Source: Anaerolineae bacterium (GTDB lineage: Bacteria; Chloroflexota; Anaerolineae; S140-20). Taken from it: a stretch of 44,704 nucleotides of DNA. The stretch's first letter is position 1. Each line of letters starts with the position of its first letter. The translations under genes and the position numbers were made by a program. The DNA lies in contig DAOTXN010000147.1 of NCBI GenBank assembly GCA_034435435.1, positions 1-44,704 of the forward strand, in the 5' to 3' direction. Shown here one piece after another: positions 12,766-44,559 of the stretch. The notes beneath the pieces are model-generated. The model made no database searches. It was not told the DNA's origin and saw only the letters and a program-made list of their open reading frames with translations.

Positions 12766-14730
12766 ATGTTTGGGGGCCAAGTGTTATTTGTTGACAACGA
12801 TCCCGATTTTCTCGACACCCGCGCCGAGTTCCTGGAAAACGCTGGTTATCGGGTAATGAAAGCATATACACTGGAACAGGCCCGACAGTTGCTGGCAGAT
12901 GCTCGCGTCCATCTAATCATTCTGGACATTCGTATGGTGAATGAAGATGATGAGAAAGACACCAGTGGCCTCACTTTGGCCAAGGATCCGGCTTATCGTC
13001 CGCTGCCCAAGATCATTCTCACCGGCTATCCTAGCTATAAGTATGTGAGAGAAGTCCTGGGGCCTGCACTGGAAGGCTTACCACCCGCAGTGGATTTCCT
13101 GGCCAAAGACGAGGGTCCTGGGGCTATGATTCAGGCCGCAGCGCGCGCCTTTGCCCAGCATGTTCGCCTCAACTGGGACCTGCACATCAACTGGGACCCT
13201 CGAGAACATCTGTCGTTTCTGCACCTGGTCAGCCCGCTCCAACCCGACCTGCCCAATGATACCCTGCTTCAGCGGGCCGACGAGCTGGAAGACCTCTTCC
13301 GGCGCTTGTTCTACGATTACCAGCAGATTCGCATTGGCCGGCTGCTGTGGCACGATCAGGAGCGTTTTTGCCTGCAAGTCCTGGCCCAGTCCTCCCAGGG
13401 AGCGACTGATTCCCGCATCTTGGTTTGTGGGGGACAGGGCTGTGTAGAACGCGATTTGAAACAGGTGCGGGAACTGGCGCCCGAATCGGCCCAGGGGACA
13501 AAACTGGACAGCACAGCCGAGACTATGCATTTCGCGGCGGCGGCTTTTACGCTTCTCGGCGCTGAACTGGAAATCGTGCAGCCACTACGGGACTTGTTTC
13601 AGCATGCTCAGGAACGCCCTCTCAGAACTGCCTTTGACCACTTGCTAAAAGATGTCCTGTTGGCCTGGCATCAGCGTGGGCAAATGGTTGAGCAGCGGCG
13701 CGACCTGATGACACTCTATCGTCTTCAGGTAGGGTTGGAGGAAAATGGCTTTCCTCACGCAGAGGTGGAGCGTCGGGTAGAGGCTCTGATCCAGATGGTG
13801 CGCCCCTTGAGCGCCGTGGAGATCGAGCGCGGCGATGGAGTGGTTACCTTTCACTTCCCCAACCAGCCGCCGCTAGTCTGCCCGGACCCCGTGGCGGCTG
13901 CCTACGCGCACCTGGCAAGCTATGACAAACCGATTGTGTGCAAGGTTTCGCCCGGTCAGCTCACGGCTGACAATGTGCTGGTGGACGCGAAGCAACGAGT
14001 CTGGCTGACTGATTTTCGCCACTCGGGTCAGGTCCCCCAGTGGTGGAATTTTGTCTGCCTGGAGGCGATGGTCCGTTTTGACCTGAGTCAGGCTCCCGAC
14101 TTGTTGGCCTGGCAAGAGTTTGAGGAGTGTCTGGTTACGCCGACCCAACTCCACGACCGGCTGCAGATACAAGATGTCATCAGCGATCTGCGCTCGAACT
14201 TGGTTTTGATTGAGCAAATCCGACGTCAGGCAGGAAGCGAAGCGGGACCTGATCCATTACCCTATTATGCTGGTCTGTTGATATGGACTGTGGGGGCCAT
14301 TGCGGATCACGATCCGTCAGTTCTCTATACCCAGGCCGAACGCATGCGCGGTGCCCAACTGCTTCTGGCGGCTGCCGTGCTTACACAAAGGTTGGGTAAG
14401 ACTTTTTCCGCACATCAAGCAGGCCAGAGACTGCGCCTGGAAGGCGATGGCGCTGTGTGGATTGGGGATCGGTGCGTCGGTGAGTTGGGCGGGCAAGAGT
14501 TGGAACTACTCCGTTGCCTGTATGAACGGACCAACCAACCGGTGACTCGCGAGGTGATTGTAAAATCGGCGTTCAAAGAACCTTACAGGATAGGTGATGA
14601 CCAGATGGAAAGCCGCATCAATTCGCTGGTCAGGCGACTGCGAGTTAAGATTGAGCCTGACCCGAACCGACCGCGCTACGTTGTCACAGTCAGGGGAAAG
14701 GGGCTTCGCTTGGAGACGGAAGGCAAGTAA
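12766..14730 (+). CDS. Response regulator with an N-terminal REC, a central protein-kinase-like/aminoglycoside-phosphotransferase-like domain and a C-terminal OmpR/PhoB-type winged-helix DNA-binding domain
   Basis: REC is a paralog of the previous gene's REC (VLFVDNDPDFLDTRAEFLENAGYRVM...LIILDIRMVNEDDEKDTSGLTLAKD). Central motif LTADNVLVDAKQRVWLTDFRHSG resembles a kinase catalytic loop plus DFG. C-terminal LELLRCLYERTNQPVTREVIVKSAF...RINSLVRRLRVKIEPDPNRPRYVVTVRGKGLRL matches trans_reg_C. ATG 12766 is preceded by AAGGGGGAA. Confidence 0.6.
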   Translation: MFGGQVLFVDNDPDFLDTRAEFLENAGYRVMKAYTLEQARQLLADARVHLIILDIRMVNEDDEKDTSGLTLAKDPAYRPLPKIILTGYPSYKYVREVLGPALEGLPPAVDFLAKDEGPGAMIQAAARAFAQHVRLNWDLHINWDPREHLSFLHLVSPLQPDLPNDTLLQRADELEDLFRRLFYDYQQIRIGRLLWHDQERFCLQVLAQSSQGATDSRILVCGGQGCVERDLKQVRELAPESAQGTKLDSTAETMHFAAAAFTLLGAELEIVQPLRDLFQHAQERPLRTAFDHLLKDVLLAWHQRGQMVEQRRDLMTLYRLQVGLEENGFPHAEVERRVEALIQMVRPLSAVEIERGDGVVTFHFPNQPPLVCPDPVAAAYAHLASYDKPIVCKVSPGQLTADNVLVDAKQRVWLTDFRHSGQVPQWWNFVCLEAMVRFDLSQAPDLLAWQEFEECLVTPTQLHDRLQIQDVISDLRSNLVLIEQIRRQAGSEAGPDPLPYYAGLLIWTVGAIADHDPSVLYTQAERMRGAQLLLAAAVLTQRLGKTFSAHQAGQRLRLEGDGAVWIGDRCVGELGGQELELLRCLYERTNQPVTREVIVKSAFKEPYRIGDDQMESRINSLVRRLRVKIEPDPNRPRYVVTVRGKGLRLETEGK

Positions 14731-20018: not shown

Positions 20019-20606
20019 ATGCAAATCGTACCCAACACTCTGACTCACGAGCGCGTGGTAGCCTTTGTGGACTATCACAACACCGTCCACGCTCTGCGCC
20101 GCGAGGGCCGCCGCATCGACCTGGGCGCGCTACGCGCATACCTGGCCGAAGGCCGCCACTTACTGGAGGCCTTCCTCTACATCGCCACCCATCCGCGCCC
20201 CGAGCGCTACGAGGCCGACGCCGCCACACTACACCGCTTGCGCCAGCACGGCTTCCTCGTCCGCACCAAGATGGGCCAACTCCTGCCCAACGGTCGCCTC
20301 AAGTGCGACTTTGATCTCGAAATGGCCCTGGACGTCCAGGAGTTCGCTGCCCGCACCCATCCCGACATCATCGTCCTGGTCAGCGGCGACGGCGATTTCG
20401 CCCCCCTGGTGCAGCGGCTGCGTCTTCAGGGCGTCCGCGTCGAAGTCGCCTCGACCCCGGGCAGCGTCTCGGCGAACCTGCGGGCGATGGCCAATGGATT
20501 CGTTGACCTCACCCGCCTGGGCGACGTCGTAGACCATCTGGGCCTGCCCGAAGCGGAACACATCCTCGCCGGCACGCCTATCGCCGCGACTGAGCTGGCG
20601 CTCTAG
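20019..20606 (+). CDS. NYN-domain (LabA-like, PIN-fold) putative RNase, 195 aa
   Basis: VAFVDYHN...CDFDLEMALDVQEFA...DIIVLVSGDGDFAPLVQRLRLQGVRVEV matches NYN/LabA conserved Asp positions. RBS AGGAGGTGAAACATG. Confidence 0.65.
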   Translation: MQIVPNTLTHERVVAFVDYHNTVHALRREGRRIDLGALRAYLAEGRHLLEAFLYIATHPRPERYEADAATLHRLRQHGFLVRTKMGQLLPNGRLKCDFDLEMALDVQEFAARTHPDIIVLVSGDGDFAPLVQRLRLQGVRVEVASTPGSVSANLRAMANGFVDLTRLGDVVDHLGLPEAEHILAGTPIAATELAL

Positions 20607-21026: not shown

Positions 21027-21518
21027 ATGGCTCTCGACTGGCTCAAATCGAAAATGGAACAGAACCGGGAACCAGATGCCAACCGCCGCAATCAGCGGAT
21101 TGACGCCGAAGTCATGATGATTGCGCCGCGCTTCAGCCGCCCGCCTTATCAAGGCTTGGTTTATGACGACCAGGGACGCGACTGGCTGGTCGTCCCCGAT
21201 TATCCGCTGCCCGACCGCTTTCGGGATCGCCAGGCCGACTTGCTCATCGTCTTTCCCGAGACCTATCCTGAAACGCCGCCCATCGGCTTTTACCTCAACC
21301 AGCAGTTTCCACTGCGCAACGGCGCGCACGATGCGCATGCCACCGGCAAAGCCTATCACGGCGCCCCGGACCTGACCGATCAGGGTTGGCACTGGTATTG
21401 CGTGCAGATGGACATGGCCACCGCCGGCGCGTGGCGTCCCCAGATCGACCATCGCCAGCCGGACAACTTGTGGACCTTTTTGAACATGGTTCGAGAGGCC
21501 CTGACCAACGACGATTAG
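21027..21518 (+). CDS. Prokaryotic E2 (UBC-like) ubiquitin-conjugating enzyme homolog
   Basis: Size and position between the Ubl and E1 genes. Candidate catalytic Cys in WHWYCVQMD. RBS AAGGAGGCCGCCAATG. Call rests mainly on operon context and overall resemblance to bacterial E2-like families. Confidence 0.45.
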   Translation: MALDWLKSKMEQNREPDANRRNQRIDAEVMMIAPRFSRPPYQGLVYDDQGRDWLVVPDYPLPDRFRDRQADLLIVFPETYPETPPIGFYLNQQFPLRNGAHDAHATGKAYHGAPDLTDQGWHWYCVQMDMATAGAWRPQIDHRQPDNLWTFLNMVREALTNDD

Positions 21519-21547
21519 CCAACCAGCCATCCGAAAGGAGGAGCCTG

Positions 21548-23104
21548 ATGAACTACACCCTCTCACTCACACGACACGCAGCCGAAACGTTGCAAGCCCA
21601 TCTCCTGGGCGACCGGAGCCGCGAGCAGATGGCCATCACCTTGTGCGGCGTCAACCGGCTGCGCCGCGAGCTGCGCTTGCTGGTGCGCGACGTGATCCTG
21701 CTGCCGCCTGACGCCTTCCGTCACCAGACCGCCGCCTATCTGGAACTCAAGCCCGAAGTGCAGGCCCACGTCCACCGCCGGGCGCACCAGCATAGGCTGG
21801 TGCAGGTAGACTGGCACAGCCATCCTGCACCCGGTTTGCCTGCCACCTTCTCGGCTGTGGATGACCGGCACGAGGCAGCCCAGGCCCTCTACCTGGCTCA
21901 ACGCATGGACGGCGTGCCTTACGGATCAGTCGTCGTCAGTCCGCAGGCGCTCGACGCCCGCTTGTGGATCGTGACGCAACGAGGACGGAAAGGGCGGGCC
22001 GCGCCGACGCCGGCGCACCCCCAGGCCCACCCGCTAAACGCCGTGCTCTTCGGCGACCTGCAGCGTCGAATTCCCCTCAGCGCCCAACAGCAGGCGGATG
22101 CGCCGGGCCTCTCTGCGATCTTTGACCGCCAGGTGCGGGCCTTTGGCGCGGCCTTTCAGCGCCAGGTCGCTCAACTGCGCGTCGGCGTCGTCGGCCTGGG
22201 CGGGTTGGGCAGCGCGCTGGCGGCGCATCTGGCGCGTATGGGCGTGCGCGACTGGGTGCTGGTAGACCCCGACGTGGTGGAGCTGTCCAATCTGAACCGC
22301 CTGGTCAATGCCACGTTGACAGACGCGCAGAAAAACCGGCCCAAGGTCTACGTCGCTCGCAGCAGCGTGCGCCAGGCCCAGCCCCAGGCCCGCGTGCGCG
22401 CGATGCAGGTTGACGCCTTTGATCCCGCCGCGCAGCGCGCTCTCAAGGCTTGCGACCTGCTCATCCTCGCCACCGACAATCACAGCAGCCGCATGGCCCT
22501 CAACCGGCTGGCCGCGCAATACCCCATCCCGCTGCTCCACGTCGGATTCAACATCAGCGTTGGACCAGTTGGCAACTTGTCCGACGTTAGCGGCGAGCTT
22601 GTCATCCCCGACCTGGGACAGTGGTGTCTGCAATGCGCCGGCATCGTGAACCCACAGCAGGCGGGTTGGGAGCTGGCGTCCGACTCGCAGCGAGACCTCT
22701 TGCGCCAACGCGGTTACGTAACCGACACGCCCGCGCCTGCCGTGGGCCACCTGGACGGCGTGGTGGCTGCGTTGGCCGCCGCCGAGGTGCACAACCTGGC
22801 AAGCCGCTACAAGCCCCAGCAGCGCTACCTGACCTACGACGCGCTGCGCGGAGAACTGGCGCCCTTGCAGGTGACGCCCAGCGGCGATTGCCCGGTGTGT
22901 AGCCTCGATCACGGCGTGCTGGGGTTGGGCGACTTGGAGCCGCTACCGGATTACACCCGGCAGGCGACGCTGCTCCTGCCGCCTTCGGTTGCTCGCCCGC
23001 TGCCGGACATCCCTGGCCCCAACGGGAAAACGCTCCAAACGGCCACGCCCCTGCCCGACCGCACGGCGCGCGCCCGCCGAATGCGGGCGGCGCTGGACGA
23101 ATAG
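21548..23104 (+). CDS. Fusion of an N-terminal JAB/JAMM-like deubiquitinase domain and a C-terminal E1-like (ThiF/MoeB) adenylyltransferase
   Basis: JAMM-like HSHPAPGLPATFSAVD (HxH...S..D). E1 Rossmann: LRVGVVGLGGLGSALAAHLARMGVRDWVLVDPDVVELSNLNRL. Zinc-ribbon cysteines CLQCAG and CPVC as in MoeB/ThiF. RBS AAGGAGGAGCCTGATG. Confidence 0.6.
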   Translation: MNYTLSLTRHAAETLQAHLLGDRSREQMAITLCGVNRLRRELRLLVRDVILLPPDAFRHQTAAYLELKPEVQAHVHRRAHQHRLVQVDWHSHPAPGLPATFSAVDDRHEAAQALYLAQRMDGVPYGSVVVSPQALDARLWIVTQRGRKGRAAPTPAHPQAHPLNAVLFGDLQRRIPLSAQQQADAPGLSAIFDRQVRAFGAAFQRQVAQLRVGVVGLGGLGSALAAHLARMGVRDWVLVDPDVVELSNLNRLVNATLTDAQKNRPKVYVARSSVRQAQPQARVRAMQVDAFDPAAQRALKACDLLILATDNHSSRMALNRLAAQYPIPLLHVGFNISVGPVGNLSDVSGELVIPDLGQWCLQCAGIVNPQQAGWELASDSQRDLLRQRGYVTDTPAPAVGHLDGVVAALAAAEVHNLASRYKPQQRYLTYDALRGELAPLQVTPSGDCPVCSLDHGVLGLGDLEPLPDYTRQATLLLPPSVARPLPDIPGPNGKTLQTATPLPDRTARARRMRAALDE

Positions 23105-26025: not shown

Positions 26026-28269
26026 TCAGTTTTTGATGCCCCGCACATTTTCGGCTTGCGGGCGACCTTGGTAGCTGCCAACTGTGTAACTCACTCTCTG
26101 CCCTACCTGCAACGATTTTCGCCCTGAGCCGACAATACCGCTGTGGTGAACACGGATTTCGCTGCCATCTTCCTGGGTAATAGAACCGATACCCCGATCA
26201 TCTAACCATTTCTTGACCACTCCGATCTTGGTTGCTGAAGAGGTCGTCTGTTTTATTTGTTCTCTTACCGGCGTGGGCGATTTGACCGGTTGCCCAGCGA
26301 CTGCAGCCAGGGGGTCGGGTAGCACAGGCCGATGCCTGAACCTTTCAAGCTCCATGTACTCTGTTTGCTGGGGCCCAGGCCACTCGAGTATCTTTAACAG
26401 CATTTGAATCCGTGGTACACCCGCCAAAGATGATGCGTTATTGCGCTCGTTCTGGTCCATGTGCGCCAGGACATATCGATCGAATGCCTGGATAAAGCAT
26501 TGGGTATCATCTGGCGTTTCTGCCCTGTGCCACACGGGAAGGATTTGGGCCTTCTCATTTTTACTGAACAGGCAGCTATAGCGACCCATTTCCTCTTTAC
26601 GAGCACTCAAATACAGTGTGGGTTGGAGATGGGCAGAACCCATGCCCAGCGGCTTGCCCATGCCCAGTTTGTGGCGATACTGCTTGTCCGCCTCACCTGG
26701 CAACGTCAAGGCCCAGAGCAAAGCCCCTAGCTCGAAATCGCGCAGGTTCTCAAAATGGATATGAAACTTGAAAGCCACTTTCGACCTGACCGGCTTGATG
26801 CGAGTGTATTGTTTGGGGTGGTCTGTCAATGCCTCCTGATCGAACTCTTGAATATCGTTTAAATTGACATTGCCCCGATGCCAGTAGAGTTTGTGGCCAC
26901 GAATGGTTGTTTTGTGAGGCGGGGGACTGGCATAGTGATCTAGTTGACTTTTATCATCTGGTTCTTGTTGAGTCAGGTAGTGCTGAAAACTAGTTGGCTT
27001 GGGCGAGCCAAGGATCTTTGGCGTGATTGGGTGTTGAGCCGTCCATTCAGCTTGCGCCGCAGGTTCTGACCGTGCATCAGTAATTATGACTCGGCCAGCG
27101 CAGGCGCGATCTTTTACAGGAATGGCATCACTCTTGGTGTAGCCAAAGATAGCCTCGGCCAAATCCCGCTCCGACTCTTTCCGGAGGTCAGGAGGGAGCA
27201 AATCAAGTGGGCTGTTCGGGTAGGGAAGCCGAAACATCTTGGTCGGACCGAAAAAGACCAGTTCACCGGCAACATCGAGCAGATAGAAAAGCGGATCACC
27301 GTCACTCAGTAGTTTTCGTGTGCCTGTACCCAGCCCGCGCGTGAGATCGCGATCTTCCTGGTAGATTTGCCACATCTCGTCAGAAATGGGCACCCATTTG
27401 GCCGAAGGATCTGGCTCAAAGATGACACAGTGCCAATGTTTTTCGTGTCTTCCACCCATATGACCAGATTCGATCAGCGTACCAGGTACCATGCCAGGGG
27501 GTGCACTATGACTTCCGTGGCGAGCCGTTACCCTAGTAGTGATAGCGATATCAAGAATCAAGTCTCCCGGGCCTCGTTGACCACGGTTTTGAGATCCTCG
27601 AGAAGCGGGCTCTACAAACACATCGTAGACCCTTTGTGTCCCTCGTGACTCTCCCGTAATAGATCGGACGTTGTTGTACTCCACGTGTACGAACGATTCA
27701 CCGTTGTGCTCACTTACCGGTTGAATGGCCCACCCATTTGGGGTTTTCTTGAGATAGCCACCCTTGAGACGTGGAGAAGGATAGTCTAGATGCGTGGTCG
27801 GTGGCGCAGCCTTGTTTTTGCCCAGCATTTGCTCTCGATACCAGATTCCTAATGATGAAGGATCGCCTACTGCACGGTAGATGAGCTGTTCGCTGGTGAC
27901 CCACTGTACTTTGCCGTAGCCCACGATTTCCACCAACGATCTGATCATGCCACGCAGAGTGCTGCCCGGAATTACTGGACATTGGCCATCCACAGAGAAG
28001 AACTGAGCTCTTTCGTCTTTTACTTCTTCCGGCAGCTCGTGGAACGGCTTGTCGCCCCAGGCCCTGAAAATCTCTGGACTCATACCTGCCCGGGTGTATA
28101 GAGGCGATTCCGTGGTGAGCAGACATTCGATGTAGCCCGTATACCCGGCATAGACGTCTTGAGGTGGAATGTCATCAACCGTAACCACTTTTTCCGGCAA
28201 TGGAATAAAGTTATAGGGCGCGTGGGCTGTGCGATTTGACTGCTTGGGACTCTTGTGTTTCGGATTCAT
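26026..28269 (-). CDS. cas7: Large Cas7-family RAMP (Cas7 with a large insertion) with a C-terminal cold-shock domain, 747 aa
   Basis: N-terminal HAPYNFIPLPEKV and G-rich loop VIPGSTLRGMIRSLVEIVGYG are typical of type III RAMPs. C-terminal 65 aa (KIGVVKKWLDDRGIGSITQEDGSEIRVHHSGIVGSGRKSLQVGQRVSYTVGSYQGRPQAENVRGI) matches the CspA-type cold-shock domain pattern. RBS GGAGGGGTGAAATG. Confidence 0.6.
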   Translation of the reverse strand: MNPKHKSPKQSNRTAHAPYNFIPLPEKVVTVDDIPPQDVYAGYTGYIECLLTTESPLYTRAGMSPEIFRAWGDKPFHELPEEVKDERAQFFSVDGQCPVIPGSTLRGMIRSLVEIVGYGKVQWVTSEQLIYRAVGDPSSLGIWYREQMLGKNKAAPPTTHLDYPSPRLKGGYLKKTPNGWAIQPVSEHNGESFVHVEYNNVRSITGESRGTQRVYDVFVEPASRGSQNRGQRGPGDLILDIAITTRVTARHGSHSAPPGMVPGTLIESGHMGGRHEKHWHCVIFEPDPSAKWVPISDEMWQIYQEDRDLTRGLGTGTRKLLSDGDPLFYLLDVAGELVFFGPTKMFRLPYPNSPLDLLPPDLRKESERDLAEAIFGYTKSDAIPVKDRACAGRVIITDARSEPAAQAEWTAQHPITPKILGSPKPTSFQHYLTQQEPDDKSQLDHYASPPPHKTTIRGHKLYWHRGNVNLNDIQEFDQEALTDHPKQYTRIKPVRSKVAFKFHIHFENLRDFELGALLWALTLPGEADKQYRHKLGMGKPLGMGSAHLQPTLYLSARKEEMGRYSCLFSKNEKAQILPVWHRAETPDDTQCFIQAFDRYVLAHMDQNERNNASSLAGVPRIQMLLKILEWPGPQQTEYMELERFRHRPVLPDPLAAVAGQPVKSPTPVREQIKQTTSSATKIGVVKKWLDDRGIGSITQEDGSEIRVHHSGIVGSGRKSLQVGQRVSYTVGSYQGRPQAENVRGIKN

Positions 28270-36659: not shown

Positions 36660-37050
36660 GCTGTGTTCTCCTGTGCATCGTTTGTAACGGGACCCGGTTT
36701 GATTTGAAATGTCGTCGTTCGGTTAGAATGCTGTCAGCGCGGCGTCTGGCGCGATGCGGCGAGATGAGGTAAAATGGAATCAGAAAATGGGCCAGCCAGA
36801 CGTTCTTTGGAATGGCTGCTCCCATTGTACCATAATTCCCCGTTTGTGCGCAAGTTTTTGTCAAGCGCGTCACAGGTTCCAACTCTTTCAAACCAACTTT
36901 TTTTTCAACCGAATACAGGCTGTTTTCGTCGCGCTAGATAGAGACAGATAACGACCTGCTTTTGCGGGCGTGACCCCTCTCCCCATGCGCCCACGGTTTT
37001 GTGGCGCGCCGCGCAGCCGTCGCGCGACGGCTGCCCAGTAAAAATGAGGA
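36660..37050. promoter_or_regulatory. AT-richer divergent promoter region between the minus-strand cas operon and the plus-strand gene at 37059
   Basis: Marked local drop in GC (runs such as CAACTTTTTTTTCAACC, GTAAAATGGAATCAG). No long ORFs. Confidence 0.4.
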
Positions 37051-37058
37051 GAGTAGAA

Positions 37059-37997
37059 ATGTCACGTGCGAAAGCAAATGGGCGGCAACGTAGCGTACAC
37101 TGGAGCGCAGGCTTGCTGCGCCAGGCCGTAGAAGCGCTCTACATGCAACTGGTGGGACCGGCGGACGACGGGTGTGACCCAGGAGTCGTGGAGCACATCG
37201 TGCAGACGGGTATGCAGTCCAAGATATTGGAGGCGCTGCGGGGGCGCTATGACCCGGCCGAGGCCGTGCGCGATCTGTGCACGCGCTGCGCCTTTACCGC
37301 GCTGATGGTGCAAGGGCGGCCCCACCGCGAAATCGCCCCGCTGTACCAACGGCTGATCCAGGACACACTGAACCTCATCACCGAACGGGCAGAAGGGATC
37401 GCCCGGCGTACCGGCGAGAACCCGCTGGACGAGGACCCAGGGCTGCTGATCTCGCTGTGCAAGTGCCTGAGTAGCCACACCCTGCGCCAGCCGATAAGCG
37501 CCCACATCACCTGGAAGCTGGGACACTATGAAGGAGCCGTCAGCCGGGCCATGCGCCAGATCGAGAACCTGGCCAGGCACCCGCAGGTCGTGGAAGCCTT
37601 TGCGGCCCACGTGCTCGACTCGGACCTGCCCGGCGTGCTCAAGGCCCAGTTGCTGCAAATGGCGCGAGGCGGCGGGCGCACCGGCGTGAACCCAGAGTGG
37701 GCCATCCGCTTCTTCGTCCTGCCCGGCACGGTGGCGTTCGTCAAGGCCTTCGCCGGCGTCGTGCAGACGGCCCGCACGCTGTACGACGAGGAAACCTACG
37801 CCGGCGTCGCGTGGCGCGGCAAGCGCAAACTGCCCCGCGAGCGTCGCCAGGGCTACGTGGAGGCCGCTAGGCTATGCGACTCACGTAGCGCCCTCCCGCG
37901 GGTGTCCCGTCACTTGCGGGAGGGCGACGCTCGTCAGGAGGTGCGACGATGCACACCCATCCCGACTATTACACGGAACTGGTGCGGCGGCGCGTGA
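37059..37997 (+). CDS. Hypothetical protein, about 312 aa
   Basis: ATG at 37059 (MSRAKANG) preceded by AGGAGAGTAGAA, inside the longer ORF 36999..37997. Confidence 0.4.
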   Translation: MSRAKANGRQRSVHWSAGLLRQAVEALYMQLVGPADDGCDPGVVEHIVQTGMQSKILEALRGRYDPAEAVRDLCTRCAFTALMVQGRPHREIAPLYQRLIQDTLNLITERAEGIARRTGENPLDEDPGLLISLCKCLSSHTLRQPISAHITWKLGHYEGAVSRAMRQIENLARHPQVVEAFAAHVLDSDLPGVLKAQLLQMARGGGRTGVNPEWAIRFFVLPGTVAFVKAFAGVVQTARTLYDEETYAGVAWRGKRKLPRERRQGYVEAARLCDSRSALPRVSRHLREGDARQEVRRCTPIPTITRNWCGGA

Positions 37998-38320
37998 CCG
38001 GCGACCCGCCCCTGACCGCGCGCCAGCAGCACGAGCTGGACCTGCACCTCTACATCTGCGTCGAGTGCAATGACGAATATGCGCGACTCTTGGAAGCGCG
38101 CGCGCCGGCCGCGGCAAAGGCCCTGCGCCGCGACCTGGAGAGTCGCCTGACCGCCGATATGATCACGCCGTACCTGCGCGACCTGGCGCTGACTCTCTTT
38201 GCCGGGCAGCCGTTAACGGATTTTCAGTTGATCGTGTGGGGTTTTGTGCAGCGCGACCCGGAGGCCCTGGGACGCTTTCGCTTGTTAGAGGCCAGCGTGT
38301 GGCTGGAGAGGGATGTGTAG
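37949..38320 (+). CDS. Hypothetical 123-aa protein with a possible zinc-finger (CVECNDEY)
   Basis: ORF overlaps the previous gene's end in another frame. Annotation is weak. Confidence 0.3.
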   Translation: MHTHPDYYTELVRRRVTGDPPLTARQQHELDLHLYICVECNDEYARLLEARAPAAAKALRRDLESRLTADMITPYLRDLALTLFAGQPLTDFQLIVWGFVQRDPEALGRFRLLEASVWLERDV

Positions 38321-38380
38321 CCAGGCAGCGATTTGTGGTATAATCTATGCATCGATGTGAACGCGTATGTGAGGAGGGAT

Positions 38381-38620
38381 GAGATGATCGCCTGGGATGC
38401 CGTTCGATACGTAGTGGGAGCCGATGGCCGTCCCACAGCCGTTCAAATGGATCTGGAATTTTGGCGGCAGATCCTGGCTGTGCTCGAGGATGCTGAGGAC
38501 GTGGAGATAGCGCGGGCGGCGTTGGCCGAATTTGACGCGGCCGGCGGCGATCCAGAAAAAGCAGGTTGGATACTATTGGAGGACCTCGAAAAAGAATGGG
38601 AGATCGATGACGCGCTATAA
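38381..38620 (+). CDS. Type II antitoxin-like small acidic protein, partner of the RelE/ParE toxin
   Basis: Small acidic protein (MIAWDAVRYVV...EDLEKEWEIDDAL) overlapping the toxin start. Extended -10 TGGTATAAT at 38336-38344 upstream. Confidence 0.45.
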   Translation, partial: EMIAWDAVRYVVGADGRPTAVQMDLEFWRQILAVLEDAEDVEIARAALAEFDAAGGDPEKAGWILLEDLEKEWEIDDAL

Positions 38621-38912
38621 GGTCTACGTTCTCCCTTCCGCAGCGAAAGAGATCGATCGTCTACCGGGCCACATTCGACAACGCGTGCGTCAGGCAGTAA
38701 AGGAACTAGCCCGAGATGTTTATCCGCCGCGCAGCAAACGTTTGGACTACGAGCTCAAGTCTGGATGGGAGCTTGGGCGCTTGCGCCTGGAAAGCTGGCG
38801 CTTGGTTTACGTGATTGACCGAGAGTGGGATCGCGTATTTGTGTTGACCGTCCGCAGGCGACCGCCCTATCAGTACGACGACCTGGATCAGCTTCTATCA
38901 GACGTAGAATAG
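38607..38912 (+). CDS. RelE/ParE-family toxin
   Basis: MTRYKVYVLPSAAKEIDRLPGHIRQRVRQAVKELARDVYPPRSKRLDYELKSGWELGRLRLESWRLVYVIDREWDRVFVLTVRRR matches the RelE/ParE fold signature (..K.L..L.......I...I..L...P.....K.L.G.L....RLR.G.YR..Y.ID.....V.VL.V.HR). Confidence 0.6.
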   Translation: MTRYKVYVLPSAAKEIDRLPGHIRQRVRQAVKELARDVYPPRSKRLDYELKSGWELGRLRLESWRLVYVIDREWDRVFVLTVRRRPPYQYDDLDQLLSDVE

Positions 38913-38974
38913 CCCATTGAAAAAATACGCATCTTTGCGTGGCGCCCGTCCCTGGCTGGGACGGGCGCTTGTGT

Positions 38975-39370
38975 TTAGCGCTGGCGCACCTGTCGCCCGA
39001 CGAGGCCGCGCTCGTTCTGTTCCACGCAGCACGTGACCGGCATGCCCACGTAGGGTGTGATGCGCTCTGCCAGGTCGGAGACGTGGAAAAAGATGCGCGG
39101 ACCGCCGTTCTCGATGAACCCGTAGCCGCGGTCGGGAAAGTAGGCGCTCACCACGCCCGTGGCCACCTCCAGCGGAGGCTGGCCCAGTGCGTTACACATC
39201 GGGCACAGGTAGCGCACCGTGTTCCAGCTCGGGTTGGTCCCGGCCAGCACCATGTGTACGCCCGGATGGCGTGGGCAGCGTGGGTTGGGGTTGCGCCCTG
39301 TCCCAGACGACTGGCGATGCTGCGGCGGGCGCTCGGCCGGACGCCGATAGTCGATCTTGAGCTGTCGCAT
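38975..39370 (-). CDS. Cold-shock-domain protein with an N-terminal basic/Pro-rich region and a Cys pair (CPMC), 131 aa
   Basis: C-terminal TGVVSAYFPDRGYGFIENGGPRIFFHVSDLAERITPYVGMPVTCCVEQNERGLVGRQV matches the CspA-type CSD pattern. RBS AGGAGGAGGAACATG. Confidence 0.55.
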   Translation of the reverse strand: MRQLKIDYRRPAERPPQHRQSSGTGRNPNPRCPRHPGVHMVLAGTNPSWNTVRYLCPMCNALGQPPLEVATGVVSAYFPDRGYGFIENGGPRIFFHVSDLAERITPYVGMPVTCCVEQNERGLVGRQVRQR

Positions 39371-39450
39371 GTTCCTCCTCCTGTTTCGTTTTCCCGTGAT
39401 AGGTATCGATCTTGCATCTCTTGTAACGAAAGGATTAGGGTTGCGAATGG

Positions 39451-39479
39451 TTGCGGTTCCTTTTCGAGTGTGCTACAAT
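39451..39479 (+). promoter_or_regulatory. Sigma70-like promoter: -35 TTGCGG, 17-bp spacer, extended -10 TGCTACAAT, upstream of the DUF433 gene
   Basis: Read from the sequence. 33 bp upstream of ATG 39512. Confidence 0.45.
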
Positions 39480-39511
39480 GACCACAGATTTGAATTTTCA
39501 GGAGAAAGCGC

Positions 39512-39880
39512 ATGACTGAAGCAGCGGCCGATGTTCAAGTGGTGGTGGAGCGGTTAAGCTCACTGGAGGAGCAAGTTCGCCAATTGCAGGAGCTTGTATC
39601 CAGCCGGTGGGCTCCCAGGTCGGTGGGTACTTCCACTGAACATCCCCACGTCACGCGGGTGGACACTATCTTGGGCGGTGAACCGATCATCAGGAGCACC
39701 CGTACTCCTGTGCGGGCGGTGGCCGAGCACTGGAAATTCGGCGATGCACCCGAAGAGATAGCCCGCAAGCTGCCCCACCTGCAACTGGCTCAGATTTTTG
39801 ATGCCCTGAGCTATTATGACGACCACCGGGACGAAATTGAGCGCTATATCGCCCTGAACCGCGTACCGCTCCATGACTGA
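39512..39880 (+). CDS. DUF433-family protein (antitoxin-like, usually paired with a DUF5615/PIN-like partner that is absent here)
   Basis: ILGGEPIIRSTRTPVRAVAEHWKFGDAPEEIARKLPHLQLAQIFDALSYYDDHRDEIERYI matches the DUF433 signature (GG.P.I.GTRI.V..V.....G...EEI....P.L....I..AL.YY). Confidence 0.55.
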   Translation: MTEAAADVQVVVERLSSLEEQVRQLQELVSSRWAPRSVGTSTEHPHVTRVDTILGGEPIIRSTRTPVRAVAEHWKFGDAPEEIARKLPHLQLAQIFDALSYYDDHRDEIERYIALNRVPLHD

Positions 39881-40033
39881 GCGCGCCGATCCTGACTTGC
39901 AGGCCCTTTACCTCTAGCAACCCGTCGGAGAACCCTGTAGCATAGGGCCTTGCGCCCGTTTTGCTTGCGCCCGTTTTGCGCCCACGAGGGGCTAAATTAC
40001 ATCTCCCCGACAGGCTGCTGACCAGCCGCCCAA

Positions 40034-40066
40034 CCGACCACACCTTTGAGGCGTGGTCGGTTTTTT
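40034..40066 (+). terminator. Rho-independent terminator CGACCAC-acctttgaggc-GTGGTCG followed by GTTTTTTCG
   Basis: Stem plus T6 tract read from the sequence, downstream of the DUF433 gene. Confidence 0.55.
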
Positions 40067-40125
40067 CGTTATCCCAGGTGGACCCATTTGACCGTTGGCA
40101 AAAGACGCTCCTCAGGAGGCGTGTG

Positions 40126-41277
40126 ATGCTCTCGAATAACTGCTTGACCGATAGCGTTCAGGATGTGCCCCAAGCCCTCATCCGCGCATTGCTCCGCCAC
40201 CCGCGCGCGCTGCAATCCGCGCTGACCGAGGCCGGCCTGGCCCCTCACGACCTGGCGATCTGGGCCAGGGGGCAAGGCGATCTGGCCGACGTGGAAAAAG
40301 TGGCCGGTTGGCTGGCGGTGAGCCAGCGCCCCGGCGCCTATAAACCCCTGCTGGAGGTGGCCGGCAGCCACCTGCGCGCCGGCGACCTGGAAGCCGCCTT
40401 GCCGGTGTTCCGCTGGGCGTACCAGGCCTGGCAAGCGGCCCCCGGTTGGCGCGCCGCGCACCGCTACGACGGGGCCAAGCTGCTGGCGCTGTGGGGCGAG
40501 TGCCTCTATCGGCTGGACCAATCCGCCGAGGCGCAACAGCGCTGGCTGTGGGCGCTGGACGTGGCGCCCGACGCCGAGACGCTTACCCGCCTGGCCCGGG
40601 CCATCGAGCGGGCCGAGGCCGGAGACGCATACGCCGTCGTACTGAGCGAAGCCGTGCGCCGCCGCCTGCCCGGCGCCGCCGCGCTGCAGGAGCGCTGGGA
40701 GCGCATCAACGCCCTCACCGCCGTGGAGAGCGACGCATCCGACGCCAAAGCGCCCCAGCCCCAATTATCATCCCGAGCTCGTCGAGGGACTACCGCCGTT
40801 CTGGCCGATGTGGCCAACCTGGACCTGGTGTGCGGCGAGCAATTCGGCTACGGGCGACGGCTGGATTATGGCCGCCTGCTGCAAGCCGCTGAGCATTACG
40901 GCCCGGTCGTGATCAAGCTGGCCTGTGTACCCAACGTGCCCGACACGCTGGATGTGCGCGAACACCTGATCCAGGCCGGCTTTGAGATTGACCTCAAGCG
41001 CCCCAAGCGCAGCCACGGGCGCATCGTCGCCAACGCCGACACGGCCATGGCTGCCTTTGCTGTGCGCTGGGCCAGCGACCCGCAAATCGAGCGACTCGAG
41101 CTATGGACCGGCGACGGCGACTTTGTCAAAGTGCGCGAGGTGGTGACGCAGGCATGGCCGGAAGTCGCCGTGGCCTTTCGGAGCTTCGAGATCGGCACGG
41201 CGGCTGAAATCCGCCAGTTGGAGCAGGATTGGCTTCCTATCGGGGTGGAATACCTGCAAAACCTTCCAGGTTTCTGA
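40126..41277 (+). CDS. Protein with an N-terminal helical/TPR-like region and a C-terminal NYN (LabA-like) nuclease domain, about 383 aa
   Basis: C-terminal TAVLADVANLDL...RLDYGRLLQAAEHYGPVVIKLACVPN...IQAGFEIDLKRPKRSHGRIVANADTAMAAFAVRWASDPQIERLELWTGDGDFVKVREVV matches NYN/LabA. ATG 40126 preceded by CAGGAGGCGTGTG. Confidence 0.55.
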   Translation: MLSNNCLTDSVQDVPQALIRALLRHPRALQSALTEAGLAPHDLAIWARGQGDLADVEKVAGWLAVSQRPGAYKPLLEVAGSHLRAGDLEAALPVFRWAYQAWQAAPGWRAAHRYDGAKLLALWGECLYRLDQSAEAQQRWLWALDVAPDAETLTRLARAIERAEAGDAYAVVLSEAVRRRLPGAAALQERWERINALTAVESDASDAKAPQPQLSSRARRGTTAVLADVANLDLVCGEQFGYGRRLDYGRLLQAAEHYGPVVIKLACVPNVPDTLDVREHLIQAGFEIDLKRPKRSHGRIVANADTAMAAFAVRWASDPQIERLELWTGDGDFVKVREVVTQAWPEVAVAFRSFEIGTAAEIRQLEQDWLPIGVEYLQNLPGF

Positions 41278-41293
41278 GACCTGGAAGGTTTTC
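41261..41293 (+). terminator. Hairpin ACCTTCCAGGT-ttctgag-ACCTGGAAGGT followed by TTTTCG. The NYN gene stop codon sits in the loop.
   Basis: 11-bp perfect stem plus T-tract read from the sequence. Confidence 0.5.
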
Positions 41294-41342
41294 GTTATAC
41301 CAAATAGCAGCCCATTTCGACCATCTGATAGGAGGAAGAACT

Positions 41343-42002
41343 ATGAATCCCCAAGACGCCCGGCTGTTGGCCGAAAAGGTGGTGCGCGAGTTGTACCGCA
41401 TCGCCCAGGGCTACGGCAAGGAGCATCCCTTCCGCTTCGAAGACCTGGCTCACGACTTTGCGGTGATGCTAGACCGGAACGTCCTGCACGTCGTTTCGCT
41501 CAAGTTCTACCGCTCCAATGGGAACCGCGACGTGTTGGTGGAATACACCTACGAGCTGCACGCCGGCCGCCCGCACTTTCACCTGGATGACGCGCAAGGG
41601 CTGGGCATCGCGCCGCTCAGTCCGCCCTTCGAGATGGCGCTGATCGTCAACCGCGACCCGCAGGGCGGAGCCTACGAAGGGCAACTGCGGCTCAAGTGGG
41701 GCGACGCGCCCAACTATGCCCGGCGCGGCGGCTTTGAGCACCAGGACGGCAACACAGCGCAGCGCACTGGGGGACGGGCCAGCAAGCGGGTCTACATGGA
41801 CCATGGCCTGCGCCGCCAGGGCCAGGTCAAGTTCTTCCGAGCCGAGCAGAGCTACGGGTTCATCGCCGGCGCGGACGGGATAGACGTGTTCTTTCACGCC
41901 AGCAACGCCGACGGGTTCCAGCCGCGCAAAGGCCAGCGGGTAACTTACCTGCCGCTAGTGACGCCGCGCGGCATCCAGGCCAAGGACGTGCGGCTGGCGT
42001 GA
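41343..42002 (+). CDS. Protein with an unknown N-terminal domain (~150 aa) and a C-terminal cold-shock domain, about 219 aa
   Basis: C-terminal GQVKFFRAEQSYGFIAGADGIDVFFHASNADGFQPRKGQRVTYLPLVTPRGIQAKDVRL matches the CSD pattern. RBS GATAGGAGGAAGAACTATG. Confidence 0.55.
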   Translation: MNPQDARLLAEKVVRELYRIAQGYGKEHPFRFEDLAHDFAVMLDRNVLHVVSLKFYRSNGNRDVLVEYTYELHAGRPHFHLDDAQGLGIAPLSPPFEMALIVNRDPQGGAYEGQLRLKWGDAPNYARRGGFEHQDGNTAQRTGGRASKRVYMDHGLRRQGQVKFFRAEQSYGFIAGADGIDVFFHASNADGFQPRKGQRVTYLPLVTPRGIQAKDVRLA

Positions 42003-42022
42003 GGAGCGCCGAAGGACGGATG

Positions 42023-42499
42023 ACGATGGACCACGAGACCTATTACTACTGCGACGCTTCGATTGACGCGCTGATGCGCTGCACCGGCGTGGCGGTGGTG
42101 GTGCGCGACGGCGGGGGGCGTATCCTGGACGCAGCCAGTTGTTGCCTGGAAGGGATGACCAACAACGAGGCTGAGTACGAGGCGCTCATTCTGGGTATCG
42201 AGCTGGCGCTCTCACGCGCTGAAGCCGCCGAACGGGTGGCGCTGCTCACCGACAGCCAGATCGTGGTGGGGCAGATGGCGCGCCAGTTTGCGGTGCGCGA
42301 CCGCAAGCTGGCCCCACGCCACGAGCAGGCCTCGCGCCTGCTGGCCCAATTGCCCGGCGCAACGTTGATGTTCATCCCCCGCGAGCGCAATTGGCTGGCC
42401 GACGCGCTGGCCACCGAGGCGATGGAAACCGGGTTAGAAAAAGACCTGCCAGGTTTTGGAAACCTGGCAGGTCTGGGAGGGGAGGATGACGCTGTTTGA
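42023..42499 (+). CDS. Stand-alone RNase H (RNase HI-like) domain protein, about 158 aa
   Basis: YYYCDASID...DGGGRILDAASCCLEGMTNNEAEYEALILGIELAL...ALLTDSQIVVGQM matches the RNase H type 1 D-E-D core (D..S, NN.AEY.AL, TDS). RBS GAGGAG upstream. 14-bp overlap with the RT gene start. Confidence 0.6.
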   Translation, partial: TMDHETYYYCDASIDALMRCTGVAVVVRDGGGRILDAASCCLEGMTNNEAEYEALILGIELALSRAEAAERVALLTDSQIVVGQMARQFAVRDRKLAPRHEQASRLLAQLPGATLMFIPRERNWLADALATEAMETGLEKDLPGFGNLAGLGGEDDAV

Positions 42500-43346
42500 G
42501 GCGGTGTGCGACAGCTATAACCTGGACCAGGCCTGGATGGCGGTGCGGGGCAAGCGCACACTGGCCGCCCGGCAGCAAGGGGCCGGGGTAGATGGTGTGA
42601 CGGTGGCCGATTGGGAGCAAAACTGGCCCGCTCGCCTGCGAGCTTTGCAGACCGCCTTGCTGGAGGGCGCATATCACCCCAGCTCGCTGCTGTGGTTCGA
42701 CGCGCCGCGCCGCCCCCCCCTCAATCCCGCCCGCTCGCGGGGGGGAAGTAAAGGTAAGCGCCGCCTGGGCATCCCCACCGTGACCGACCGGGTGGCTCAA
42801 CGGGCCGTTCTGCGCGTGCTGGAACCGCTCTGGGAAGACGTATTCCTCTCGTGCAGCCACGGCTTTCGGCCGGGACGCTCGGTGTTCACTGCTGTGGCCC
42901 ACGTGCTGTGGCACGCGGCGCGGGGGTTGCGCTGGGTGGCCGACGCCGACATCGCATCCTTCTTTGATACGATCTCGCACGAGCGCTTGTTGCGCCAACT
43001 GGCGGCTCTGGACGACGAGCGAGTGCTGAGCTTGCTGGCGGGCTGGCTGGCGGTGGGCGCGGCAGCGCCGGGGCGAGGCGTGGCGCAGGGCGCGGTGATC
43101 AGTCCGTTGCTGGCCAACGTTTACCTGCACCCATTCGACGCGGCGCTGGTGCAGGCGGGTTGGGCGCCAGTGCGCTATGCCGACGATGTGGTGGTGCTGT
43201 GCGCCGACCCCGACCAGGCGCTGCAAGCCCTGGCCCACGTCAACCAGGCCCTGGCGGACCTGGACCTGGCGCTGAACGAGGCCAAGACGGCGGTTGTGCC
43301 GTTCGGGCCCGGGTTCAGCTTTCTCGGAGCGACGTTTGATGACTGA
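42486..43346 (+). CDS. Reverse transcriptase (group II intron-like RT domain only; the Cas1-associated RT encoded separately from Cas1), about 286 aa
   Basis: RT motifs LGIPTVTDRVAQRAVLRVLEPLWEDVFLSCSHGFRPGRS and the catalytic YADDVVVLC. RBS GGGAGGGGAGGATG. Stop TGA at 43344-43346, 12 bp before the cas1 ATG. Confidence 0.65.
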   Translation: MTLFEAVCDSYNLDQAWMAVRGKRTLAARQQGAGVDGVTVADWEQNWPARLRALQTALLEGAYHPSSLLWFDAPRRPPLNPARSRGGSKGKRRLGIPTVTDRVAQRAVLRVLEPLWEDVFLSCSHGFRPGRSVFTAVAHVLWHAARGLRWVADADIASFFDTISHERLLRQLAALDDERVLSLLAGWLAVGAAAPGRGVAQGAVISPLLANVYLHPFDAALVQAGWAPVRYADDVVVLCADPDQALQALAHVNQALADLDLALNEAKTAVVPFGPGFSFLGATFDD

Positions 43347-43358
43347 AGGGGGTGAACC

Positions 43359-44222
43359 ATGACCCGACTGATCGTGGACACGCAAGGGGCGCGGCTGCGC
43401 AAGGTGGGCGAGCGGCTGGCCGGGCCGCTGTCCAAGCACAGCGCGCTGCGCGCCCGCCAGACGCTGGCGGCGAGCGACCCGGCCCAGGCGCTGCCGGTGG
43501 CGCGGGCCATGGTGGCCGGCAAGCTGCGCAACCAGGCCACGGTGCTGCGCCGGTACGTTGCAGATAGCGACGAGCGCGTGCAGCGGGCGGTGGAGATCAT
43601 CGCGGCGCAGGTGGAACGGGCAGGCCAGGCGGCCGACCTGGAGACGCTGCGCGGGCACGAAGGCAGCGGGGCGGCGGCCTACTTTCGGGCCTGGCCGGCC
43701 CTGTTCGACGCCGAGCGCTGGCGCTTCCACGGGCGGGCCTACTATCCACCGCCCGACCCGCTGAACGCTATGCTCAGCCTCACTTGCCCTGGCGGGCAGT
43801 GCCAGGGGGGCTACACGCTGCTGCTCAACGACGTGGTCAGCGCAGTGTATCGCATCGGCCTGGACCCCGACATCGGCTTTTTCCACGCGCTTGACTATGG
43901 GCGGCCCTCGCTGGCGCTGGACCTGGAGGAGGAGTTCCGGCCGGTCATCGTGGACACGCTGGCCCTGAGCCTTGTGCGCAACCAGGTGCTCGAGCCGGGC
44001 GACTTTCGGCAGGAGGAGGGCGAGCGGCCCCGGGCGCTGATGACCGACGACGCGCGGCGTTTCTTCATCCAGAGCTACGAGGAGCGCATGGGGGTGCGGG
44101 TGCGGCATCCGGCGTGGGAGCAGATGCTCACCTACCGCCAGTGCATCGAGCGGCAGGTGGAGCACCTGGCCCGTTGCATCCTGGGGCGCGACGCGACCTA
44201 CGATCCGTTGCTGATCCAGTGA
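43359..44222 (+). CDS. cas1: Cas1 integrase (287 aa; the N-terminal beta-sandwich domain appears shortened)
   Basis: Catalytic-domain motif GFFHALDYGRPSLALDLEEEFRPVIVDTLALSLV (Cas1 E/H/E region). RBS GGGGGTGAACCATG. Confidence 0.7.
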   Translation: MTRLIVDTQGARLRKVGERLAGPLSKHSALRARQTLAASDPAQALPVARAMVAGKLRNQATVLRRYVADSDERVQRAVEIIAAQVERAGQAADLETLRGHEGSGAAAYFRAWPALFDAERWRFHGRAYYPPPDPLNAMLSLTCPGGQCQGGYTLLLNDVVSAVYRIGLDPDIGFFHALDYGRPSLALDLEEEFRPVIVDTLALSLVRNQVLEPGDFRQEEGERPRALMTDDARRFFIQSYEERMGVRVRHPAWEQMLTYRQCIERQVEHLARCILGRDATYDPLLIQ

Positions 44223-44280
44223 AACGTGAGGCGCGAGCTACGTTTCACGTCCCTTTGGGACGCACCACGGAGGAAGGGCC

Positions 44281-44559
44281 ATGTTTGTCGTTGTCGCCTA
44301 TGACATCGCCGACAACAAGCGGCGGGTGCGGGTGATGAAGGCGCTGCAGGGCTTTGGCGAGCACGTGCAGGAGAGCGTGTTCGAGTGCCACGTGGATGAC
44401 GCCGTCTATCGCAAGATGGTGCGGCGGCTCAAGGAACTGGTCAACCAGGGGGAAGATAACGTGCGCTTGTATCATCTGTGCCAGACGGACGTGGCGCGCA
44501 TCCAGCAGTTGGGCGTGGGCCGGGCGGCGCAGATGTTGACCGAATTCGCCATTGTGTAG
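44281..44559 (+). CDS. cas2: Cas2, 92 aa
   Basis: MFVVVAYDIADNKRRVRVMKALQGFGEHVQESVFECHVDD...NVRLYHL is the canonical Cas2 N-terminus with the catalytic Asp (YDI). RBS GGAGGAAGGGCCATG. Confidence 0.8.
   Translation: MFVVVAYDIADNKRRVRVMKALQGFGEHVQESVFECHVDDAVYRKMVRRLKELVNQGEDNVRLYHLCQTDVARIQQLGVGRAAQMLTEFAIV

Follow-up and report, generated by a model that had tools for sequence, protein, structure and literature searches.

Why should three proteins of quite different build, all encoded around a CRISPR effector operon and a reverse transcriptase (RT), each end in a cold-shock domain (CSD)? The question is raised by contig DAOTXN010000147.1 of the Anaerolineae bacterium assembly GCA_034435435.1, whose 44,704 nt were analysed as one stretch (referred to as the window). 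A first-pass annotation of this DNA had read the three domains as a dedicated single-stranded RNA (ssRNA)-handling adaptor of a defence island rather than as housekeeping cold-shock proteins (Csps). We found that two of the proteins, a HORMA-CSD fusion and a protein in which a putative zinc ribbon (ZnR) precedes the CSD, constitute what is apparently an undescribed conserved pair, and we are highly confident that this pair is associated with an RT-Cas1-Cas2 adaptation block. Judging from sequence, the two probably help the CRISPR system to capture RNA for new spacers. The three CSD proteins of the window are:

26026..28269, minus strand: Cas7-CSD, a type III RAMP protein of the TIGR03986 family with a C-terminal CSD on a Pro-rich linker (effector operon, 747 aa)
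38975..39370, minus strand: ZnR-CSD, 131 aa, with an MRQIRIDY-like motif, a basic/Pro linker, a C-x2-H...C-x2-C hairpin and the CSD
41343..42002, plus strand: HORMA-CSD fusion protein, 219 aa, with the HORMA domain at about residues 1-153 (last strand 146-153) and the CSD at 157-219

All three CSDs were borne out where the first-pass annotation had placed them, both by Pfam PF00313 (gathering score 27 bits) and by a profile of canonical Csps, and the five-stranded OB-fold beta-barrel expected of a cold-shock domain was found. PF00313 matches residues 683-744 of the Cas7 fusion with 48.4 bits, residues 159-217 of the 219-aa protein with 38.3 bits, and residues 71-128 of the 131-aa protein with 25.6 bits (E 1.1e-5), slightly below the gathering score; a profile of the ZnR-CSD family matches solved Csps with E-values of 1e-7 to 1e-5. 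The Csp profile was built from six canonical Csp sequences and run against 671 six-frame segments of the window. It matched only the same three CSDs (E 2e-11, 5.5e-9 and 0.012, the next match having E>1), giving a total of three and no free-standing Csp in the window.

Related loci were collected by contig look-ups, a scan of species-representative genomes and a metagenome scan, and the window's proteins were mapped onto them by tblastn. Clustering at 97% nucleotide identity reduced the 38 loci so obtained to 26 clusters, 20 in a main clade and 6 in a divergent clade; counts are given below as clusters in which a gene was found over clusters assessable, that is, with loci that have enough flank. 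The main-clade block runs in a fixed order: an uncharacterized gene for about 400 aa, another for about 125 aa, ZnR-CSD (on the opposite strand), NYN, HORMA-CSD, RNase H, RT, Cas1 and Cas2. This order held in every assessable locus of the 20 Anaerolineae clusters. The ZnR-CSD gene was present in 13/13 of them, and the other members are listed here with their window coordinates and main-clade counts:

36999..37997, plus strand: conserved uncharacterized module protein, about 400 aa in relatives (tblastn identity 44-57%), 12/12 clusters, in two of which it is located further upstream
37949..38320, plus strand: conserved uncharacterized 123-aa protein with an invariant H-x3-C-x2-C, 12/12
39961..41277, plus strand: helical-repeat and NYN ribonuclease-like protein (Pfam NYN 48.1 bits; open reading frame (ORF) of 438 aa from a TTG), 17/17
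41999..42499, plus strand: RNase H-like protein of the RVT_3/RNase HI type (Pfam RVT_3 62 bits, RNase_H 27.1 bits; NCBIfam RNase HI), 19/19
42456..43346, plus strand: stand-alone CRISPR-associated RT, 296 aa, fingers and palm, no thumb/X domain (RVT_1 110 bits), 15/15
43359..44222, plus strand: Cas1 (Pfam Cas_Cas1 213 bits, the match beginning at profile position 72), 13/13
44281..44559, plus strand: Cas2 (Pfam CRISPR_Cas2 82 bits), 13/13

The six divergent clusters, which are 45-49% identical, encode ZnR-CSD (6/6), RT (3/3), Cas1 (1/1) and Cas2 (1/1) and are without NYN and RNase H. Here a ZnR-CSD gene for about 106 aa lies directly upstream of HORMA-CSD and in the same direction, the RT gene lies directly downstream, and Cas1-Cas2 come next where the contig permits. 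Two loci from different samples (L014 and L038) encode a single protein in which a linker connects the zinc ribbon to the HORMA-CSD N-terminus. We rejected the possibility that this fusion (P0080) is a gene-calling artefact, since it occupies one uninterrupted ORF in two independent contigs. By a Rosetta-stone-type argument, the existence of a ZnR-HORMA-CSD fusion speaks for ZnR-CSD and HORMA-CSD working together. Equal lengths of the longest contigs also suggest that several of the 70 ZnR-CSD homologs share contigs with HORMA-CSD homologs, for example at 51,494, 54,109 and 27,689 bp.

The HORMA module is found with effectors of varying Cas10, at 24-27% identity in some loci and 48-51% in others, and because of this spread the adaptation module is independent of effector type. 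With their position by RT-Cas1-Cas2 fixed in every assessable locus of the 26 clusters, and with the aromatic and His positions of RNP1/RNP2 type invariant in both CSD families, the two proteins are dedicated parts of a defence locus and not housekeeping Csps, as the first-pass annotation had suggested.

What, then, is each of the two proteins? The N-terminal domain of the 219-aa protein, which had been called unknown, is identified by profile and structure searches; by its predicted structure it is a HORMA domain. On the window protein, bacHORMA_1 (PF18138) covers residues 5-72 only with 29.3 bits (E 9e-7), below its gathering score of 35.6; a divergent relative (P0273) reaches 38.3 bits, and most HORMA-CSD homologs carry a precomputed PF18138 match. 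An AlphaFold model made with 36 homologs as input reached a mean predicted local distance difference test score (pLDDT) of 88.8 and a predicted template modelling score (pTM) of 0.85. A Foldseek search with this model supports the HORMA fold (E ~7e-6, probability 1.0), and the closest structures are HORMA proteins of cyclic-oligonucleotide-based anti-phage signalling systems (CBASS) in the peptide-bound closed state (6p8r, 6p8s, 6p8u and 6u7b). In the model, the last strand of HORMA (146-153) and the first of the CSD (158-166) are separated by four residues; this short link and the pTM of 0.85 indicate that HORMA and CSD would form a rigid two-domain unit.

The 80 HORMA-CSD homologs, mostly 218-225 aa long and 62-79% identical, come from Anaerolineae metagenome-assembled genomes (MAGs), where they are named merely 'cold shock'. 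Residues Y171, G172, F173, F183, F184 and H185 are invariant and the RNP1/RNP2-type motifs YGFI and VFFH are kept, while the best-conserved block of the whole family, RTGGRASK (residues 141-148), lies in the segment that joins the HORMA core to the CSD. A phmmer search of 1.84 billion representative proteins with the HORMA part alone returned 15 matches; 13 of them have 193-261 aa, and the remaining two are merely fragments of 84 and 91 aa. Pfam detects a CSD in 8 of the 10 relatives scanned; in the other two (P0280 and P0281), and also in P0283 and P0284, CSD-like motifs can be recognized by eye at the C-terminus. Given these CSD and CSD-like ends, the HORMA subfamily appears to occur solely in fusion with a CSD. 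The distant HORMA-CSDs P0271, P0273 and P0282 have an extra 20-30 C-terminal residues resembling an amphipathic helix, which the main clade is without.

The HORMA-CSD gene had been described as the first of its operon. This does not hold: the co-directional NYN gene ends 65 nt upstream in the window, it is directly upstream of HORMA-CSD in 17/17 main-clade clusters, and no terminator is predicted between the two. A strong Shine-Dalgarno sequence, AGGAGG, stands 7 nt upstream of the ATG at 41343, and another, GGAGGAGG, stands upstream of the ATG of the ZnR-CSD gene at 39370. From these signals both genes look expressed. The ZnR-CSD gene is followed by:

38927..38969, no strand assigned: terminator-like hairpins between the convergent ParE and ZnR-CSD genes (hairpin prediction)

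These comprise a 12-bp GC-rich hairpin at 38941-38969 and a hairpin with a T-run terminator at 38940-38927 on the minus strand.

The ZnR-CSD protein begins with the conserved MRQIRIDY-like motif and a basic/Pro linker of variable length, both predicted to be disordered (pLDDT 56-64), followed by a confidently modelled beta-hairpin and short helix that carry C32-x2-H35...C56-x2-C59. C56 and C59 are invariant in the family and C32 and H35 are at least 90% conserved, and we infer that this hairpin is a zinc ribbon. A Cys pair noted earlier in this protein is present, but it is only half of the conserved four-residue motif. In the CSD, F85, F94, F95 and H96 are invariant, and the RNP1/RNP2-type motifs GYGFI and IFFH are kept. 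A further cysteine inside the CSD barrel, C114 (PVTCxVEQN), is invariant in 32/32 aligned members.

The RT adjoins cas1-cas2 (42456-44559), so that the locus has the arrangement of an RT-associated adaptation module. It fits the PADLOC CRISPR RT model PDLC01136 over its full length (256 bits), scores 151 bits with Cas1_IIIb (RT-Cas1) and aligns to the RT part of the Cas6-RT-Cas1 protein 7kft (E 3e-26). TIGR04416, the group II RT/maturase model, gives 228 bits over positions 3-267 of 353, and the GsI-IIC RT aligns through residues 19-273 of its 428; because both alignments stop there, the window RT has no thumb/X domain, and the missing thumb explains why the TIGR04416 score is below the cutoff of 300. 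The PADLOC, TIGR04416 and 7kft matches place the RT in the CRISPR-associated, group II intron-like lineage. A Chloroflexi clade in which RT is separate from Cas1, RT-CRISPR-9, was reported by Toro et al. (2017) (PMC5541045), who had no complete operons of it, and we infer that the window RT belongs to this clade.

No CRISPR array lies within the window, where the contig ends 145 bp after cas2. In 5 of 6 related loci examined, arrays are found downstream of cas2, with 14 to >70 copies of a 37-nt repeat ending in GTATTGAGAC. Such large adjacent arrays imply active acquisition in these relatives. A WYL-domain or unannotated minus-strand gene lies directly 3' of cas2 in L001, L004 and L006. Compared with four relatives, the window Cas1 has lost 58 aa in frame, and with them most of the N-terminal beta domain, and has gained 8 aa (CPGGQCQG). 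These changes may mean that the genome's adaptation module is defective, but an assembly error could also account for them.

What could the two CSD proteins do beside such an RT? CSDs bind and melt single-stranded RNA and DNA, and HORMA domains bind short closure-motif peptides, as in Mad2, CBASS HORMA proteins and Rev7 on DNA polymerase zeta. We propose, with a probability of roughly one half, that the two are dedicated accessory subunits of an RT-dependent spacer-acquisition module and not cold-shock proteins. HORMA-CSD and ZnR-CSD would then act as a heteromeric unit, with HORMA docking the pair onto the RT and/or Cas1-Cas2, or else engaging the disordered motif at the ZnR-CSD N-terminus. 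The two CSDs would hold or unfold single-stranded RNA or cDNA, and the pair could supply a template/primer grip to the thumb-less RT and replace the covalent link that holds RT and Cas1 together in other clades. NYN might cut RNA to size, and RNase H might strip the RNA strand from the RNA:cDNA hybrid before or after integration. In favour of this proposal, the best defence-library match of both module CSDs is the CSD effector of the type V/Se72 retron, a precedent for the pairing of an RT with a CSD. The ssRNA-handling role suggested by the first-pass annotation is partly supported: the two module CSDs keep their RNP positions, but the motifs of the window's Cas7 CSD are degenerate, and because of the HORMA domain the protein that carries it is more likely a protein-protein adaptor or switch, coupled to the CSD, than a plain RNA adaptor.

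Several points weigh against the accessory-subunit proposal. The family is narrow, occurring mainly in Anaerolineae MAGs and in 7 of 185,579 species representatives, all of them Anaerolineae. No closure motif was identified, the conserved disordered N-terminal motif of ZnR-CSD being a candidate, and a TRIP13/Pch2 remodeller appears in none of the loci (called genes and Pfam matches). The window's own copy is decayed, with the Cas1 N-terminal deletion, a shortened uncharacterized protein and toxin-antitoxin (TA) insertions, and may be non-functional here. Finally, the main-clade ZnR-CSD gene is divergent and monocistronic and has its own terminator, an arrangement typical of a regulator.

This last point, together with the small size of the gene and its place between the effector and adaptation operons, suits a role of both proteins as regulators or RNA chaperones, which would act by CspA/CspE-like antitermination or folding of hairpin-rich pre-crRNA or adaptation mRNA while HORMA contacts the transcription machinery. 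Arrays in relatives are indeed very long (up to >70 repeats), a WYL regulator gene is likewise conserved beside cas2, and both module CSDs resemble CspE/CspA-type antiterminators, with low score. We nevertheless regard such a role as possible but doubtful. The ZnR-CSD gene of the divergent clade directly precedes HORMA-CSD-RT-Cas1-Cas2 and runs in the same direction, and in two contigs it is fused to HORMA-CSD; the link is to RT-containing adaptation genes and not to effector or array type, and loci with Cas6 and effector of the same repeat family exist without HORMA-CSD and ZnR-CSD. The HORMA domain invites another possibility, in which it senses a phage or stress peptide as in CBASS and safety-belt closure repositions the CSD, licensing RT and integrase only during infection. 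In a related reading, HORMA-CSD would be a TRIP13-independent conformational switch: binding of a closure motif (the ZnR-CSD N-terminal motif or a phage peptide) would act on RNA capture by the attached CSD through a mechanical coupling, and RNA-to-spacer acquisition would become conditional on infection. The nearest structures are the peptide-bound closed CBASS HORMA proteins named above, the last HORMA strand continues straight into the CSD, and the most conserved block, RTGGRASK, sits in the segment linking the two. We consider both the gating and the coupling unlikely. Against the gating, the 38 loci hold no TRIP13-like ATPase and no nucleotidyltransferase partner, no candidate ligand is known and the modelled state cannot be used as evidence. 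If true, the coupled switch would bring HORMA control to CRISPR adaptation for the first time and extend HORMA signalling to a new use beyond CBASS.

The retron matches that lend a precedent to the accessory-subunit proposal could also mean that RT, CSD proteins, NYN nuclease and RNase H are a separate abortive-infection system, similar to retrons or defence-associated RTs (DRTs), which merely lies beside cas1-cas2 and in which NYN could be the toxic effector. Both module CSDs do match models of the type V/Se72 CSD effector (PADLOC CSD_V 29.7 and 28.5 bits), but NCBIfam NF038236 gives them only 26.6 and 23.3 bits against a cutoff of 82. The RT fits the full-length CRISPR RT model and RT-Cas1 much better than any retron or DRT model, Cas1-Cas2 are next in 13/13 main-clade and 1/1 divergent assessable clusters, and large arrays are nearby; a separate system is therefore quite improbable. 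That ordinary cold-shock genes came together by chance in a variable island is hardly credible. The island is a mosaic, with BREX remnants, an integrase and TA genes, and the three CSDs are no closer to one another than to Csps, but synteny is perfect over 26 clusters in two clades, the HORMA-CSD and ZnR-CSD architectures are not Csp-like, a gene fusion joins them, and the window has no free-standing Csp.

How does the module compare with known systems? RT-Cas1 and Cas6-RT-Cas1 modules (Marinomonas mediterranea; Thiomicrospira, 7kft; Vibrio vulnificus III-D) likewise join a group II intron-like RT to Cas1-Cas2 by a type III locus. Unlike the RT-Cas1 fusions of type III/VI CRISPR, the window RT is a separate 296-aa fingers-and-palm protein, and RNase H, NYN, HORMA-CSD and ZnR-CSD are additional. 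HORMA-TRIP13 regulators of CBASS type III, reportedly described by Ye et al. in 2020 (structures 6p8r, 6u7b and 6p8v), differ in that the window HORMA is fused to a CSD, is partnered with RT-Cas1-Cas2 and has a sequence identity of 10-19% to them; neither the called genes and Pfam matches of the loci nor the window module include a CD-NTase or a TRIP13/Pch2 AAA+ protein, so that there is no CBASS type III operon. The likeness to Rev7 (MAD2B), the HORMA accessory of DNA polymerase zeta, would be a functional analogy only; Rev7 is eukaryotic and has no CSD. Type V/Se72 retrons also encode a small CSD protein beside the RT of a defence system, but the window RT is of CRISPR/group II type and retron models fit it much less well. 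Lin28 combines a CSD with zinc knuckles; in ZnR-CSD the order is reversed and the zinc motif is different, and nothing beyond the CSD speaks for homology.

A full-text search found no description of HORMA or of these CSD proteins in CRISPR adaptation, with coverage that is poor for subscription journals, so that a prior description is possible; nothing bearing on it stands in Silas 2017 or in the mCpol paper. The pair would apparently be new accessory subunits of an RT-linked adaptation module. The mechanistic papers that we found concern covalent RT-Cas1 fusions. For the question how a stand-alone RT works with Cas1-Cas2 to make spacers out of RNA, these loci supply a natural 'split' system with defined helpers (HORMA-CSD, ZnR-CSD, RNase H and NYN) that lends itself to reconstitution and dissection. 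They also show HORMA in a bacterial setting other than CBASS, joined to an RNA-binding domain and with no TRIP13, which bears on the evolution of HORMA adaptors as polymerase and signalling accessories. RNA-recording tools could gain from a compact accessory that captures RNA for RT-Cas1-Cas2.

Does the third CSD protein belong to the same set? Cas7-CSD reaches 394.8 bits with TIGR03986 over residues 18-630, well above the equivalog cutoff of 161.35, the nearest relatives of its RAMP part are Cas7-11 domains and the III-Dv subunit 8s9t_E, and the gene adjoining it in orthologous loci is Csx19. Together these observations point to a type III-D effector. TIGR03986 homologs (P0151-P0270) have the conserved end 'RPVLPDPL' and a Pro-rich linker in common, and then follows an interchangeable C-terminal module: a canonical Csp-like CSD in 15 of the best 120 homologs, an S1 tail in P0153, P0156 and P0171, an S1-like segment in P0155 and P0157, or a short basic tail in P0163 and P0195. 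Because the homologs end in such different ways, the Cas7-CSD tail is a swappable, tethered OB-fold on the III-D backbone subunit, probably flexible and ssRNA-binding. The RNP motifs of the window's Cas7 CSD are degenerate (RGIGSI, IRVHHS), and orthologs retain KGFGFI and VFVHFS.

Fusions of this kind have long been known. Makarova et al. (2006) (PMC1462988) already gave a table of RAMP-CSP and RAMP-S1 fusions, which belong to the same class as the window Cas7-CSD, an OB-fold on a type III Cas7-family subunit; in PDB entry 9arw, a 'CSD domain-containing protein Cmr6' of 376 aa, it is the N-terminus that carries the CSD, whereas the window CSD is C-terminal on a TIGR03986 III-D RAMP. The Cas7-CSD effector is also separable from the adaptation module. 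In the orthologous effector loci L016 and L017 the available sequence contains no HORMA module, and the HORMA module in turn occurs with distant Cas10 (24-27% identity), on which grounds we rejected a single package of the two; the three CSD proteins are not one set. Cas7-CSD is thus ordinary, and its sole addition to what is known is a RAMP family with interchangeable OB-fold tails.

Comparison of the domains themselves shows that the three CSDs have separate origins. The CSDs of Cas7 homologs have mean local scores of 162 to canonical Csps, 82 to HORMA-CSDs and 65 to ZnR-CSDs, and the score between HORMA-CSD and ZnR-CSD domains is 66, which does not exceed their scores with Csps. A common recent origin, for which the first-pass annotation had proposed a test, is rejected by these pairwise scores and by a neighbour-joining tree, in which the Cas7 CSDs group with Csps and the other two form clades of their own. 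The first-pass annotation had named two findings that would together tell against its own reading, CSDs no more related to each other than to Csps and a random scatter of such proteins in related genomes; the former is what we found, but the latter is false.

The remaining module genes were compared with their relatives. The NYN ORF of 438 aa probably starts too early: relatives have 372-392 aa, because of which we place the likely true start near 40126. A perfect 15-nt tandem duplication (CTTGCGCCCGTTTTG, 2.1 copies) at 39949-39979 covers the annotated TTG start, upstream of the likelier one. Aligned with its relatives, the window copy of the ~400-aa protein is without about 100 C-terminal residues. 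Neither this protein nor the 123-aa protein has a match in Pfam, NCBIfam, PADLOC or the PDB, bar a meaningless one of 18 bits; the H-x3-C-x2-C of the 123-aa protein recalls zinc-binding anti-sigma factors. Two further elements, both identified by Pfam, are window-specific insertions and not part of the module:

38333..38912, plus strand: RelB-like/ParE toxin-antitoxin pair
39512..39880, plus strand: DUF433 gene

By tblastn, the RelB/ParE and DUF433 genes are in none of the related loci. The toxin-antitoxin flanks earlier noted around the 131-aa gene are thus present in the window but peculiar to it.

Related perfect hairpins with CCAGGT...ACCTGG cores and stems of 12 and 15 bp occur at 41260-41290 and 42442-42474, at the NYN/HORMA-CSD and RNase H/RT junctions (2 observed against 0.02 expected). 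As a conserved module feature they were rejected, being present in 1/40 loci. Gene spacers in related modules hold G-rich or C-rich tandem repeats with periods of 7, 8, 14 or 34 nt that are locus-specific (L001 7813-8002, 10071-10175 and 11203-11391; L011 10656-10762; L029 13023-13102). In one divergent-clade locus, a 247-aa protein adjoining Cas6 (L015:1221-1964) has a weak N-terminal CSD (E 1.6e-3), and this locus may also hold three CSD proteins.

Elsewhere in the island, a histidine kinase with two N-terminal S1 domains (S1-S1-REC-GAF-HATPase) is encoded at 4802-7108, directly after BREX PglZ and BrxL, and adds another OB-fold RNA-binding module to the island. The segment 18131-23864 encodes an integrase, a helix-turn-helix protein, a stand-alone NYN protein (20019-20606) and a JAB+E1 (ThiF) fusion (21386-23104); the fusion matches CBASS-type E1-E2 (Cap2-like) models, with no CD-NTase detected nearby. 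Receiver-domain proteins encoded at 12017-14730 carry CyanoTRADDas_TM and TCAD9 domains, which are hallmarks of NTP-dependent 'ternary' conflict systems of multicellular bacteria (Kaur et al., 2020; PMC7159879).

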